A stretch of 42,868 nt of DNA from Candidatus Heimdallarchaeota archaeon (GCA_016839945.1 JAEOTE010000039.1:1-42868); one strand, 5' to 3'; positions 37,968 to 42,500 are shown, counted from the first letter of the stretch. Numbers and translations are program-made. Notes: generated by a model from the sequence alone, not told the origin.

Positions 37968-38729
37968 TTATCTTTTGAAAACAATTTTGTTCTCCAAAGG
38001 ATAGACAACATATTTCCCTGGATTCTTCTCAACCATGCTAACAAGAAAGCTTTCAGTGGTTTTAATTGAAACCCCTAGATCTTTGGAGATACTATCAAAA
38101 TTTATTTCATCCAACTCTTCTGACTTTTCTTCAACATATTCAGTCAACATTATCTCAAAATTTTCTCTGCTTAAAAATAATTGTTGATCTTTTACTACTC
38201 CACCCAAAATTGCATCATCAACCATTTGATGTATCAAAGAAAGCAGCAAATCGAGTTCTATTTTTAACTTCCTACTTATTTCTTGAATTTCATATTCTTC
38301 TTTGTTTTGAAGAGTGGACAGAATATAATTCTGAAGATATTTTAGTGAGTAATACGCTTCTTCACTCATTACTCCTCTTTCTAAGTGCTGTAGGAATAAA
38401 TCCAGGATTTTGTCTTTAATCTTCCAATGTTTCTTAAGAGGATCTAAATTAACAAGACCAGTGTTTTTAAGTCTGTTTTTAAGGTCGCCTAAAGCTTCAT
38501 CTTCCATTGAAAAGAAATAAAGATTTTTTTTGGTTAAGACTATACCACTTATTTTTCTAGAAGAAAGCAATTTATTAGTAACTTTGTATCTTTGTTCTGG
38601 AGATAATTTTGATTGTATTCTCATCAAATTCAAGAAATTTTTGTTTTCTAGTTCTTCTATCAAATGGTTTTCAAATACTTTTTCTTTTGAAGTAAACAAC
38701 ACAGAGATTCTTCTTAAGAGAGAACTCAT
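37968..38729 (-). CDS. Tandem winged-helix/PCI-like protein (UFL1/DDRGK1-like)
   Basis: Repeated wHTH units: RLKNTGLVNLDPL, IQEISRKLKI..IHQMVDDAILGGVV, INFDSISKDLGVS. Confidence 0.55.
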   Translation of the reverse strand: MSSLLRRISVLFTSKEKVFENHLIEELENKNFLNLMRIQSKLSPEQRYKVTNKLLSSRKISGIVLTKKNLYFFSMEDEALGDLKNRLKNTGLVNLDPLKKHWKIKDKILDLFLQHLERGVMSEEAYYSLKYLQNYILSTLQNKEEYEIQEISRKLKIELDLLLSLIHQMVDDAILGGVVKDQQLFLSRENFEIMLTEYVEEKSEELDEINFDSISKDLGVSIKTTESFLVSMVEKNPGKYVVYPLENKIVFKR

Positions 38730-38896
38730 AGTACTCGTATGTTCTTACAATGTATAGTTTATAAAAGATTGCTCTTCTTGTTTCTTTAATAGAGATTTGT
38801 TAAATAATAAAGGTGAAATTGAAAAGTTTTGAAACTTCTTTTAAGCAAATAATTGTGGTGTTTATTTAGCTTGCTTCTGTAAAAATATAGATAATC

Positions 38897-39823
38897 ATGA
38901 ATAACTCCGAAAGGATATCATCAGGCATAGAAGGCTTGGATGTACTTCTACAAGGCGGAATGATAAAAAATTCTATAAATTCAATTGTAGGTAGCAGTGG
39001 AACAGGAAAAACAACATTTGCTCTTGCATATGTTTACCAAGGTTTGTTAGAAGGAGATCACATATTATACTTATCTTTTGAAGAACCGCCCTCTAAGTTG
39101 ATGCTAGAAGCAGAATCTCTAGGTATAAAAATCAAAGAAATAGCAAAGAATCATGACGACTTAATCCATTTAGTTGAAAGTGAGAAAATAGTTGAATTCA
39201 TGACTAATATTCTACCAGCTTTAGCTCAGAAGCTTAAACATAAAAACCTCAAACACACTAGAATAATACTAGATCCTCTAACACCAATTTTATGGGAATT
39301 CCCTTCAGAAAAAGATCAGAGAAAAGTATTAACAAAGATATATCATCATTTGAGTTCTTTAGGTACTGTTTTACAAACTGTTGAAGAGCCAAATGCTTTT
39401 GGGCAAACAGATATTGGTTCAATCGAAACTAGAGTGCCAATATACCTTTCTGATTCTGTTGTGCATATTCAAAATCTTGGACTTGGTGGGAAGTATAACA
39501 GAACATGCAAAATTGTCAAATCTAGAAGAACAGCTCACCATGAAGGAATCTATCCTTTAAGTTTCTCCTATGGTCCAGGTATTGTTATAGATACAAGTAC
39601 AATTAAAGATAACATCAAGAATCTCCCCTCACAGGATTTTAGATATATTGAACTTATGCAAAAAGTAAAAGCAATGTCAAAAGATAAAGATCCCAAAAAG
39701 CGCATTATTGCACAAATAGCTAATAACCTACTAGGAGATAGACAAAAGAACGAAACTAAAGACAATTTAGAATTAGTAAATGCATTAACAGACCCTCAAA
39801 TTCTTCAAGAGGTTAGAAAATGA
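38897..39823 (+). CDS. Single-domain KaiC-like (RAD55-family) ATPase
   Basis: RISSGIEGLDVLLQGG, Walker A GSSGTGKT, YLSFEE, RIILD, YLSDSVV, KIVKSRRTAH. Confidence 0.9.
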   Translation: MNNSERISSGIEGLDVLLQGGMIKNSINSIVGSSGTGKTTFALAYVYQGLLEGDHILYLSFEEPPSKLMLEAESLGIKIKEIAKNHDDLIHLVESEKIVEFMTNILPALAQKLKHKNLKHTRIILDPLTPILWEFPSEKDQRKVLTKIYHHLSSLGTVLQTVEEPNAFGQTDIGSIETRVPIYLSDSVVHIQNLGLGGKYNRTCKIVKSRRTAHHEGIYPLSFSYGPGIVIDTSTIKDNIKNLPSQDFRYIELMQKVKAMSKDKDPKKRIIAQIANNLLGDRQKNETKDNLELVNALTDPQILQEVRK

Positions 39824-40179
39824 ATTTTAACTATGGAATTTCATCAGAATTAAAAGATTTAAACTATCTAGACGATGTAGAAGGTTCAGTTCTTTTTAGA
39901 ATAGATGGCAATGTAATAGATTCAGTTTTTAATGATAATCAATCACAAGATTTATTGCGAACAATACAATGGAGCAAAAGCAACGTAGAGAAAGTATCCA
40001 TGGAAATGAAGAATAATAACCTTCAGAAAGTTACTTATGAATTAAATGACTTTTACATCCTTTTCTTTGTGGTTAATAGAGTTACAGTGTTAACAACGTT
40101 TGCTAATCAAAATGCAAATCTCAGTCTTTTATCTATTGAAGCAAAAAGAAAATCGCAAAATATTTCTCAGTTTTTGTGA
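39820..40179 (+). CDS. Roadblock/LC7 (MglB/LAMTOR-like) domain protein
   Basis: VEGSVLFRIDGNVI, LQKVTYEL, VLTTFANQNANLSLLSIEAKR; ATGA overlap with the KaiC-like gene. Confidence 0.82.
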   Translation: MNFNYGISSELKDLNYLDDVEGSVLFRIDGNVIDSVFNDNQSQDLLRTIQWSKSNVEKVSMEMKNNNLQKVTYELNDFYILFFVVNRVTVLTTFANQNANLSLLSIEAKRKSQNISQFL

Positions 40180-40189
40180 GGTTTTACTA

Positions 40190-41533
40190 ATGCAAATATC
40201 TACTGGAACAACTAGTCATAGATCAATAAACCAAGCCACTAAAAATGTAATTAAAGACGTTATAGAAGACATTAATGGGACACCAGATTTTGTGCTAGTT
40301 GCTTTTACATCAAATTATAGACAAAGTGATGAATACAAACAAGCTTTATCTAAAATCTGCGAAGAAAGTGGAACTACAAATGTAATGGGGGGTACTTTTC
40401 CTGGAGTCGCAACTTCAAATGAATTACCAACGACACAGGGATGTTCTTTAATGGCTATTAAATCTAGTGAGATCTCTTTTGAAAAACCTTTTAGCTACTC
40501 AAATGTTCGAATAAATCCAAAAAAAGGTTCGGAAATAATATTTGATGCATACCAGAAACAGAAAAACAAATCAAAAATAGGTTTCTTCCTCACACCTGGT
40601 CCGCTCTATCAAGATGATGCTTTTGAGCAAATGAAAATCCTAGATACAATTTTCGCTAAAAAATTCAAAGGAATGTTTAATTTCATTGGAAAAATAATTG
40701 ACAAGAGTATGGGGAAAGGCGGATATGGAGGAACACTCTTTGCTGAGAAGATATTACATATGCTTCTTAATCAAGGAGTAGAGAACATATTAGGAGGAGC
40801 GACAATAGATTTAGATATGAAAGCATGTTATCAATTTAGTGGAGAAGAGATTTTTAGAAACGCACTAGTTGGAACTGTTTTCTCTTCAGACAAATATGAA
40901 TTTGGTCATGGGTGGACATTTGATAGATCACAAAAAAGCAAGAAATTTGATATTTCGGGGTTTTTAAAAAGCAGTGGGTATATCCAGTATATTAACGAAA
41001 GGTCAGCAAATAGAGAATTTCGTGACATTATAGGCATTTCAGAAGAATTATATGAAGAAGCTTTTGGAAATTTTGCATATGCGTCATTGTTATACTTATC
41101 AGCTCTTAAAAAGCCGAATAAGGAATATGTTCCCTTCGTATCAGTATGTCATCCAATTTTAGATGGTGTTGTAACAACAATCCCTGAAAGATATTTGAAT
41201 GAAAACAAAATAATAGCTGATTTCTTCACACAATCAGGTACCGGAATTCAAAAGTCTGCATATGATTGTGCAACAAATATATCGAAAAATCTTGAAAATC
41301 TTAAATTTGGTATTTTCATAAATTGCAGTAATAGACTCCTTATTGCAGGAGATAAAATAGATAAAGAAAATATGAAAATTAAAGAAGCTTTAGGAGACGA
41401 GGTTCCCTTTATCACACTTTATTCTGGAGGAGAATTTTCTCTTATTGGAAATAATCCAGTTTATTCTTCAGTTTCTGTTCACGGAATTGTAGCTGGTGAG
41501 AATAAAGTTCCTATAAAAAATGTGGTGTTTTAA
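40190..41533 (+). CDS. Stand-alone FIST-N/FIST-C sensory protein
   Basis: PDFVLVAF, VMGGT..G, ILGGA, HGW, INERSA, IFINCSNR, PFITLYSGGEF; GAGG Shine-Dalgarno before ATG 40190. Confidence 0.82.
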   Translation: MQISTGTTSHRSINQATKNVIKDVIEDINGTPDFVLVAFTSNYRQSDEYKQALSKICEESGTTNVMGGTFPGVATSNELPTTQGCSLMAIKSSEISFEKPFSYSNVRINPKKGSEIIFDAYQKQKNKSKIGFFLTPGPLYQDDAFEQMKILDTIFAKKFKGMFNFIGKIIDKSMGKGGYGGTLFAEKILHMLLNQGVENILGGATIDLDMKACYQFSGEEIFRNALVGTVFSSDKYEFGHGWTFDRSQKSKKFDISGFLKSSGYIQYINERSANREFRDIIGISEELYEEAFGNFAYASLLYLSALKKPNKEYVPFVSVCHPILDGVVTTIPERYLNENKIIADFFTQSGTGIQKSAYDCATNISKNLENLKFGIFINCSNRLLIAGDKIDKENMKIKEALGDEVPFITLYSGGEFSLIGNNPVYSSVSVHGIVAGENKVPIKNVVF

Positions 41534-41557
41534 ATCTTTTTTTGGATATGAGTATTG

Positions 41558-42154
41558 ATGAGTTCTTCAATTCCCTATAGCACAAAACAAGACAACATTC
41601 TCAAAATAGCTGTCCTTGGCTTAGGTTCTGTTGGTAAAACTACGATTTCAAAAAGTTTCTCTGGCGAAATGTCTAATCCCGATGATATATCAATGACTAA
41701 AGGCGTAGATATAACAGTGAAACGCATAGTTCACTGCGATAGAACAGTAACACTTCAAATTTGGGATTTTGCAGGTCAAAAACAATTTAGATTCATGATA
41801 GATGTTTTCTTAAGAGGAGTAAAGGGCATAATTTATGTTTACGATGTGACAGATATTGAGACATTAATCTATCTTAATGAATTTGTAGATCTAACTAGAA
41901 ATTACTTAAACAACCATTATTATCAAAAAATACCAGAGATACTGGTTGGTAATAAGCTAGATTTAGAAAAAATTGAAGTTGCAATAGAGGATGTACATGA
42001 GTTCATGAAAACATATGAAATAAAGAAACATTTTCTTGTTAGTGGTTTGTATTCGCATAATGTTTCAGAACCATTTGAATACATGGTTGACCAAATTGTA
42101 AATAAGGAGAAAAATCTGACAGAGGAGCTGGTTTCTAAATACTCAAGCATTTGA
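41558..42154 (+). CDS. Ras-superfamily small GTPase (Rab/Roc-like)
   Basis: G1 GLGSVGKT, G2 TKGVD, G3 LQIWDFAGQKQFR, YVYDVT, G4 LVGNKLD, G5 VSG. Confidence 0.92.
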   Translation: MSSSIPYSTKQDNILKIAVLGLGSVGKTTISKSFSGEMSNPDDISMTKGVDITVKRIVHCDRTVTLQIWDFAGQKQFRFMIDVFLRGVKGIIYVYDVTDIETLIYLNEFVDLTRNYLNNHYYQKIPEILVGNKLDLEKIEVAIEDVHEFMKTYEIKKHFLVSGLYSHNVSEPFEYMVDQIVNKEKNLTEELVSKYSSI

Positions 42155-42176
42155 TGTGGTTTTTTAAGTGATATAA

Positions 42177-42500
42177 ATGATTGAAAATAAATTTATTAGA
42201 AAAACATTCAATTGCGAACATTGCGGAAGAATGTTGGAGTGTAAAATAGATAGGAAACAACTTGAGGATTTAAAAGATAGCCAACTGTTTAATTTTGTTT
42301 TAATGCATGCAGATGATCACACATTGATTGTATCAATAGATGGAAGAGGAAATATAAGAAGATCTAGAATCGCATCTCTCAGCTCAAACGTAAAACAAAA
42401 AGCAGAATTTGAAGAATTCTCTGACTACACAATAATTGAAGAATGCAATAATCTCGTAGATGCATTCAATGTTTATCTAAAGAGTTCAGATACTGCTTAG
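42177..42500 (+). CDS. Small putative Zn-binding protein (CxxC..HxxxH)
   Basis: CEHCG..VLMHADDHTLIVSIDGRGNIR; 22 nt after the GTPase stop. Confidence 0.7.
   Translation: MIENKFIRKTFNCEHCGRMLECKIDRKQLEDLKDSQLFNFVLMHADDHTLIVSIDGRGNIRRSRIASLSSNVKQKAEFEEFSDYTIIEECNNLVDAFNVYLKSSDTA

Follow-up and report, generated by a model that had tools for sequence, protein, structure and literature searches.

Comparison with Described Roadblock-GTPase Systems

Ras-superfamily GTPases encoded together with roadblock-fold proteins are known from the MglA/MglB systems of Myxococcus xanthus and Thermus thermophilus, in which MglB roadblock dimers regulate MglA (PMC11016934). Actinobacterial conservons (CvnA-D) are cassettes of a sensor, the roadblock protein CvnB, a small protein and a small GTPase, and in Rag/Ragulator a roadblock-fold platform serves small GTPases in nutrient signalling. 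The cassette analysed here, at positions 38897-42500 of a 42,868-nucleotide (nt) stretch of DNA (the window) from Candidatus Heimdallarchaeota archaeon (GCA_016839945.1 JAEOTE010000039.1:1-42868), encodes a KaiC-like ATPase (g1), a roadblock protein (g2), a FIST protein (g3), a Rab-like small GTPase (g4) and a small zinc-type protein (g5). It joins a roadblock protein with a GTPase as these three systems do, yet it is a member of none of them.

The likeness to MglA/MglB extends to the g2 structural model, which superposes on MglB with a template modelling (TM) score of ~0.8, and to the g2 profile, which matches MglB sequences. However, g4 is Rab/Ypt1-like, the FIST gene separates g2 from g4, MglA/MglB has no counterpart of the KaiC-like ATPase, the FIST protein or g5, and the present locus has no polarity or motility context. 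The conservon protein CvnB5 (3leq) is among the weak matches of the g2 profile (E 2), but conservons carry a membrane histidine-kinase-like CvnA where this cassette has a soluble FIST protein, and the added KaiC-like ATPase and the archaeal host are further differences. Membership among the conservons was rejected; only the roadblock protein and the GTPase are shared, with no HATPase or DUF742 match in the five proteins. The g2 fold also matches LAMTOR subunits of Ragulator, whereas g4 is nearer to Rab, and there is neither a heterodimeric GTPase pair nor a membrane anchor. The analogy to Rag/Ragulator drawn in an earlier note on this DNA proves weak, g4 being a bare 198-amino acid (aa) G domain closest to Rab/Ypt1.

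Within the Asgard archaea, Liu et al. described a conserved operon that encodes a Rab-like GTPase together with a LAMTOR1-like roadblock protein and a DENN protein, and proposed that it is a module for GTPase regulation (bioRxiv 10.1101/2020.10.19.343400). The present cassette shares with it the pairing of a Rab-like GTPase and a protein of the roadblock superfamily, however the operon of Liu et al. includes DENN and lacks KaiC and FIST, neither of which is mentioned in their text. According to the same study, most Asgard genes for eukaryotic signature proteins (ESPs) lie outside conserved neighbourhoods, and the GTPases of strain MK-D1 are generally not found in operons with roadblock genes (Tran et al. 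2024, PMC10933270). Makarova, Galperin and Koonin (2017, cited in PMC5847659 and PMC4858521) proposed KaiC-like ATPases as archaeal signalling hubs, and the arrangement reported here resembles that proposal in that the gene for a KaiC-family ATPase with a single domain stands beside genes for candidate partners on the input and output sides. The link to an Asgard GTPase is mentioned in neither PMC5847659 nor PMC4858521, both of which cite the proposal. The earlier note knew of no description of the five-gene combination, and the searchable literature contains no matching set. No paper in that literature, which does not extend to the 2017 KaiC-hub paper, treats "FIST domain" and "KaiC" together, and an earlier mention of a KaiC-roadblock-FIST core in the 2017 paper is possible.

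Organization and Conservation of the Cassette

The window has a GC content of ~31%, lies on contig C5 of a 3.0-Mb assembly that is 88% complete, and also encodes OST3/6-like and UFL1/DDRGK-like genes and an archaeal P1 stalk gene; proteins closely related to those of the window carry the labels Candidatus Heimdallarchaeaceae or Heimdallarchaeota. The cassette consists of five open reading frames (ORFs), all on the positive strand:

38897..39823, + strand: g1, KaiC-like RecA-superfamily ATPase, single domain, 308 aa (PF06745, E 1.8e-33)
39820..40179, + strand: g2, roadblock/LC7/MglB-fold protein, 119 aa; 4-nt overlap of its start with the g1 stop
40190..41533, + strand: g3, stand-alone FIST N + FIST C protein, 447 aa (PF08495, PF10442)
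41558..42154, + strand: g4, Rab-like small GTPase, G domain only, 198 aa (Ras family, E 3.1e-29)
42177..42500, + strand: g5, beta-rich protein of an Asgard-only family, 107 aa, with an invariant CxxC...HxxxH

The junctions from g1 to g5 are a 4-nt ATGA overlap followed by gaps of 10, 24 and 22 nt, making internal promoters unlikely, and the ATG starts of g3 (40190) and g4 (41558) are backed by orthologue alignments. Minus-strand genes flank the operon, one at 37968-38729 (-) upstream and an aP1 ribosomal stalk gene from 42577 (-) downstream. No transmembrane-like segment was found in g1 to g5 (maximum 19-residue Kyte-Doolittle mean <1.5), and a Pfam scan of the five operon proteins identified no histidine kinase, receiver or cyclase domain. 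The layout given in the earlier note, of five co-oriented genes with the same overlap and gaps between opposite-strand flanks, is matched exactly by the ORF coordinates, and its description of the products as soluble and free of kinase, receiver and cyclase domains agrees with the hydropathy and domain scans. Its five gene identities hold as well, the roadblock call having required profile and fold evidence and the "Zn protein" call deriving solely from the invariant CxxC...HxxxH. Together, g1 to g5 form a single five-gene cassette resembling a transcription unit, in an Asgard archaeon of the Heimdallarchaeaceae.

In a search of 400 Asgard genomes, a g3 orthologue (at least 47% identity) was present in 27 of 30 own-family genomes, the remaining three being 72-82% complete. 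The order g1 to g5 is identical in every own-family locus with enough DNA, including the closed Ca. Heimdallarchaeum genomes. The same five genes recur in the same order in a much more distant copy (L099/L100, in an assembly of 49% GC), with identities of 48, 32, 29, 44 and 38% for g1 to g5, respectively. The KaiC-roadblock overlap of 4 nt is also present in L100, and the gene after the GTPase in a further locus, L102, is again a relative of g5. The downstream flank is variable, with EF1A in some loci and ribosomal P1/L10/L1 genes in others. Joint conservation of the gene set was one of the points on which the earlier note had made its proposal depend, and the order is kept through deep divergence. 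The arrangement is thus more than chance, because the order is retained across ~30 own-family loci and also, at 29-48% protein identity, in a distant lineage, and the cassette has stayed intact over long evolutionary distances. The Asgard FIST profile had no match at E<=1e-5 in 301 sampled Thermoproteota genomes. The cassette L018 (G086:C96:3570-6848) is found in a genome assigned to another family of the class, with a FIST identity of 63%, as high as in the window's genus, which suggests that the contig was mis-binned or the cassette recently transferred.

Proteins Encoded by the Cassette

The g1 product belongs to the KaiC family, scoring 116 bits against PF06745 (cut-off 26.6) and matching KaiC_arch_3 of NCBIfam at 1.4e-29. 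Its Walker A motif (GSSGTGKTT), catalytic glutamates (SFEE) and Walker B motif (RIILDPLT) are intact and kept in orthologues, and a conserved C-terminal tail of ~75 aa is present that the proteins of a sister family lack. Identification as a circadian KaiC was rejected, as the 308 aa contain one KaiC domain rather than the duplicated CI and CII domains (~500 aa), and the score against the NCBIfam circadian KaiC model was 109.8 bits with a cut-off of 408. With regard to KaiB- or KaiA-type partners, the two small proteins of the operon, g2 and g5, gave no Pfam family.

No match to g2 was found in local Pfam or NCBIfam, the PF03259 model included. A profile of its orthologues, searched against PDB sequences, matched the solved Asgard roadblocks 7f8m (8.3e-14) and 9jue (1.1e-9) as well as MglB (5e-3). 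The AlphaFold2 (AF2) model of g2, with a predicted local distance difference test (pLDDT) score of 92.5, has the canonical roadblock topology α-β-β-α-β-β-β-α, composed of helices at residues 3-15, 43-65 and 101-118 and strands at 20-27, 32-37, 70-74, 78-84 and 89-96, and its top Foldseek matches, all at probability 1.00, are 9jue, 7f8m, MglB, MglC and LAMTOR. By profile similarity and modelled fold, g2 belongs to the roadblock/LC7/MglB superfamily. Its orthologues carry Pfam PF27410 'AF0774', some also PF03259, and the nearest named Atlas cluster is Roadblock/LAMTOR2, commonest in Methanobacteriota, with PF27410 in 11% of its members. A homology search with the roadblock profile returned only Asgard roadblocks and a few from bacteria.

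The g3 product, the sole FIST protein of its genome, matches FIST_N (PF08495) at 1.2e-7 with 32.3 bits, above the cut-off of 23.2. Its orthologues carry both FIST families in precomputed annotation, which places g3 among the FIST proteins, and Asgard homologues share a conserved C-terminal motif, C-x-N-R...GD...GGE. A FIST of the haem/NO-sensing NosP type, which is linked to a histidine kinase or c-di-GMP enzyme, was rejected on linkage, the operon encoding no kinase, receiver or GGDEF/EAL protein.

The closest solved relatives of g4 are Ypt1, Rab1 and Sec4, and Thor-Rab 7ezb is matched at 6e-19, all within the best 60 of 198 matches. The motifs G1 (GxGxVGKTT), DFAGQ and NKxD and the switch-I threonine T47 are invariant, with G1-G4 and the catalytic glutamine kept. 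Rab prenylation would require a C-terminal cysteine, and no g4 orthologue ends in one; g4 therefore appears Rab-like in sequence, with no predicted anchoring to membranes in the manner of Rab proteins. A secondary match to Gtr1_RagA (7e-9) is far weaker than that to Ras (3e-29), and identification as a Rag/Gtr GTPase was rejected, g4 being a G domain alone, with no C-terminal roadblock domain, and the single GTPase of the operon. In MglA the G3 motif is TxxGQ, with Thr in place of Asp. An MglA-type GTPase was likewise rejected, as DFAGQ is invariant at G3 of g4 and MglA is absent among the 60 listed of its 198 matches. A HMM (hidden Markov model) scan of the window's own genome identified 32 GTPase-like and ~8 roadblock-like ORFs, with one GTPase-roadblock adjacency besides the operon; this second pair lies at contig C151:33183-34106 (-), and both of its HMM matches are weak. 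In a quick tree, the operon GTPases form well-supported clades per family, outside 35 other paralogues.

The g5 family is very small, with 12 of 1.84 billion representative clusters matching at E<=1e-3, and residues C13, C16, H44 and H48 are invariant in the orthologue alignment (A2). The AF2 model, of moderate quality (pLDDT 72), places C13 and C16 at the β1-β2 turn and H44 and H48 at the β3-β4 turn, so that a C2H2 zinc-ribbon-like site is possible in the model. No convincing fold match was obtained, either in a wide fold search (Z<=3.3) or with Foldseek against PDB, which gave no match at E<=0.001; the comparisons with LysW (Z 2.5-3.0) and Zn_ribbon_21 (TM 0.44/0.61) are weak, as are the Pfam zinc-ribbon matches (E 0.02-0.05), and the shape neighbours in the Atlas are Asgard hypotheticals and a weak Zn_ribbon_21 only. 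The gene adjoins the operon GTPase in 3 of 3 loci with enough flanking DNA (L099, L100 and L102) and is restricted to lineages in which the GTPase follows FIST. A weak g5 relative (E 1.4e-6) at L130:4153-4518 in the Loki-type genome G160 lies between RNase III-like and Ham1-like genes. The g5-GTPase link is limited to the close family, because this Loki-type relative adjoins RNase III and not a GTPase.

Arrangements in Other Asgard Lineages

To resolve the layering of the gene set, HMMs built from the fetched loci were used to scan those loci, and the assignments were checked by Pfam. In a sister family of the same class, a FIST homologue is present in 22 of 22 genomes, and 17 loci carry the order Ras-family GTPase-KaiC-roadblock-FIST-major facilitator superfamily (MFS) transporter. 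A query with the sister-family MFS transporter found no match in the window's own, 88% complete genome. The GTPase is thus attached to KaiC-roadblock-FIST in three lineages and at two different positions. Another arrangement, roadblock-roadblock-gelsolin-FIST-LuxE-LuxC, occupies ~20 loci of further Asgard families (L040:2995-9393, L041-L044 and L066-L077). The first gene of these L040-type operons encodes a Robl_LC7-like protein of ~135 aa and the second a protein of ~325 aa with an N-terminal roadblock-like domain, a Pro/Glu-rich linker and a helical C-domain; the later genes encode a gelsolin-repeat protein, FIST, a LuxE-like acyl-protein synthetase and a LuxC-like reductase. Beside Loki-type roadblock-FIST operons there are also multidomain proteins with a small-GTPase-like region, one of 871 aa (L040:1-2615 (-)), encoded divergently from the operon and showing a roadblock-like sequence pattern at its N-terminus, and one of 514 aa (L074:8573-10117 (-)), encoded in the same orientation as the operon.

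Roadblock and FIST are therefore the deepest conserved pair, as elsewhere in the Asgard archaea KaiC-roadblock-FIST, or roadblock-FIST, is retained with different partners, and KaiC joins this pair in Heimdall-type lineages. The GTPase and the zinc-type protein look like a module added to the KaiC-roadblock-FIST core. The MFS, LarA, LuxE and LuxC neighbours in other lineages suggest a connection with the transport or metabolism of small molecules.

A Putative Two-Layer Signalling Module and Its Alternatives

The reading that we favour, to which we would give roughly even chances, is that the cassette encodes a two-layer cytoplasmic signalling module composed of a sensing core and a GTPase output. 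The first and older layer would consist of the KaiC-like ATPase, the roadblock protein and FIST. Here FIST would be the likely small-molecule-binding input, the ATPase, predicted to be catalytically competent, would serve as a nucleotide-driven switch or scaffold, and the roadblock protein, probably dimeric, would act as an adaptor reading the state of both. In the second layer, the output switch added to this core would be a Rab-like GTPase dedicated to the module and paired with the small zinc-type protein. The roadblock dimer would provide a platform that shifts the nucleotide state of the GTPase, by acting as its GTPase-activating protein (GAP), its guanine nucleotide exchange factor (GEF) or both, in the way that MglB acts on MglA, such that a metabolite signal would be converted into GTP- or GDP-bound GTPase. 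This wiring, with FIST as input and the roadblock protein as GAP, is inferred. The process controlled may be solute uptake or metabolite homeostasis, given that an MFS transporter fills the place of the GTPase and zinc-type protein in sister lineages.

Several observations weigh against this reading. In the genome G397, of another family, the locus L036:2853-9740 encodes KaiC-roadblock-FIST-MFS-LarA-like without a GTPase (a 161-aa longin-like gene, with a weak Fuz_longin_1 match of 1.4e-4, lies divergent upstream of it). The trio thus occurs on its own, for which reason a GAP or GEF role is not demanded by the data and the roadblock protein is possibly a partner of KaiC and FIST rather than, or besides, a GAP of the GTPase; the ties of the roadblock gene to the GTPase are also looser and less widespread than those to KaiC and FIST. 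The MglA/MglB precedent applies by analogy only, because g4 has DFAGQ where MglA has TxxGQ. In the quick tree the operon GTPases of two families form a polytomy, and their best matches are not reciprocal. The FIST_C match of g3 (PF10442, 2e-5) reaches 25.1 bits, slightly below the cut-off of 28.5, and the sensory role of FIST domains is itself largely prediction.

The main alternative is that the KaiC-roadblock-FIST trio is the functional unit, with the roadblock protein as the cognate partner of the ATPase and a KaiB-like reader of its state, and with the GTPase and g5 as lineage-specific accessories that make no direct roadblock-GTPase contact. The trio would then control a metabolic or transport process, and the accessories would feed into it or be controlled by it. 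The 4-nt overlap of the KaiC and roadblock genes, here and in L100, the trio without a GTPase in G397, the depth of the roadblock-FIST pair, which is found in the gelsolin/LuxE/LuxC family as well, and the MFS transporter after FIST in two lineages are all consistent with this alternative, and Makarova et al. 2016 (PMC4858521) expected KaiC-like ATPases to work through a second partner, in many cases unidentified, whose gene adjoins theirs. However, the GTPase has become joined to the trio in three lineages and at two positions, which is improbable unless the proteins work together, and roadblock proteins are the classical platform of small GTPases. We regard the self-sufficient trio as somewhat unlikely, however the comparative data fit both it and the two-layer module and cannot separate them.

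A more specific form of the signalling hypothesis is an Asgard-specific, ligand-gated GTPase switch, set by a FIST-bound metabolite and by the nucleotide or phosphorylation state of KaiC, in which the roadblock dimer would be the cognate GAP or GEF and the zinc-type protein an effector or a protein resembling a guanine nucleotide dissociation inhibitor (GDI). In this detail the proposal is speculative and rather unlikely.

It is quite improbable that FIST instead catalyses a step, or binds a substrate, in a small-molecule pathway, with the ATPase, roadblock protein and GTPase as its assembly or maturation factors. Stand-alone FIST N and C proteins without an output domain, and the MFS, LarA-like, LuxE and LuxC neighbours of FIST in other Asgard lineages, would suit such a role, and small GTPases and RecA-like ATPases can be maturation factors; however, FIST domains have no known catalytic function, the operon in the window has neither an enzyme nor a transporter, and regulation is the typical role of the KaiC, roadblock and Ras-like families. 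That the genes are neighbours by descent only, in a frozen order without common function, is hardly credible, for although most loci come from one family in which gene order is inherited, the order survives at 29-48% identity between flanks that differ on both sides, the sister family has the same four gene families joined in another order, and the junctions overlap or span <=24 nt.

Upstream Region and Neighbouring Genes

A promoter-like element precedes the cassette:

38853..38893, + strand: promoter-like block, AATTGTGGTGTTTATTTAGCTT, BRE/TATA-like (BRE, transcription factor B recognition element), conserved 5′ of g1

Within this region, TTTATTTA is located ~32 nt ahead of the g1 ATG and AATATAGAT immediately before the start codon. 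Alignment of the upstream regions of 10 genomes revealed that the block is conserved, and a BRE/TATA-like block of 22 nt and one of 9 nt abutting the ATG are nearly invariant upstream of g1 across the genus. The 13-mer GTTTATTTAGCTT is exact and at an identical offset in 17 loci of the genus; in the window it has one mismatch-free occurrence, compared to a chance expectation of 0.04 matches at <=3 mismatches. The putative promoter function of the block is predicted from sequence conservation and fits a single promoter with a near-leaderless transcript.

The minus-strand gene upstream of the cassette (37968-38729 (-)) is a UFL1/DDRGK-like winged-helix gene that lies directly upstream of the KaiC gene in the window and in L001, L003 and L005, co-oriented with it in L003 and divergent in the other three. 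It may be a linked regulator or a mere conserved neighbour.

Significance

Small GTPases number in the dozens in Asgard genomes, which also have many roadblock and longin proteins, and the regulators have gone unmatched to the GTPases because such genes are generally not in operons (PMC10933270; bioRxiv 10.1101/2020.10.19.343400). The cassette is an exception, naming the likely partners of one Rab-like GTPase as a roadblock protein, an ATPase, a candidate sensor and a tiny protein, and since all five proteins are small and soluble, pairwise expression and testing are feasible. If the proposed wiring is true, it would show regulation of a eukaryote-type GTPase switch before eukaryotes and would join the idea of archaeal KaiC hubs to GTPase signalling. 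A ligand-gated switch, if true, would mean that a small-GTPase pathway had for the first time been defined completely, from input to output, in the closest archaeal relatives of eukaryotes, and that nutrient signalling on roadblock platforms had a functional forerunner there. The value of the cassette is that it provides a concrete and experimentally tractable set of a GTPase and its candidate regulators in the archaea nearest to eukaryotes.

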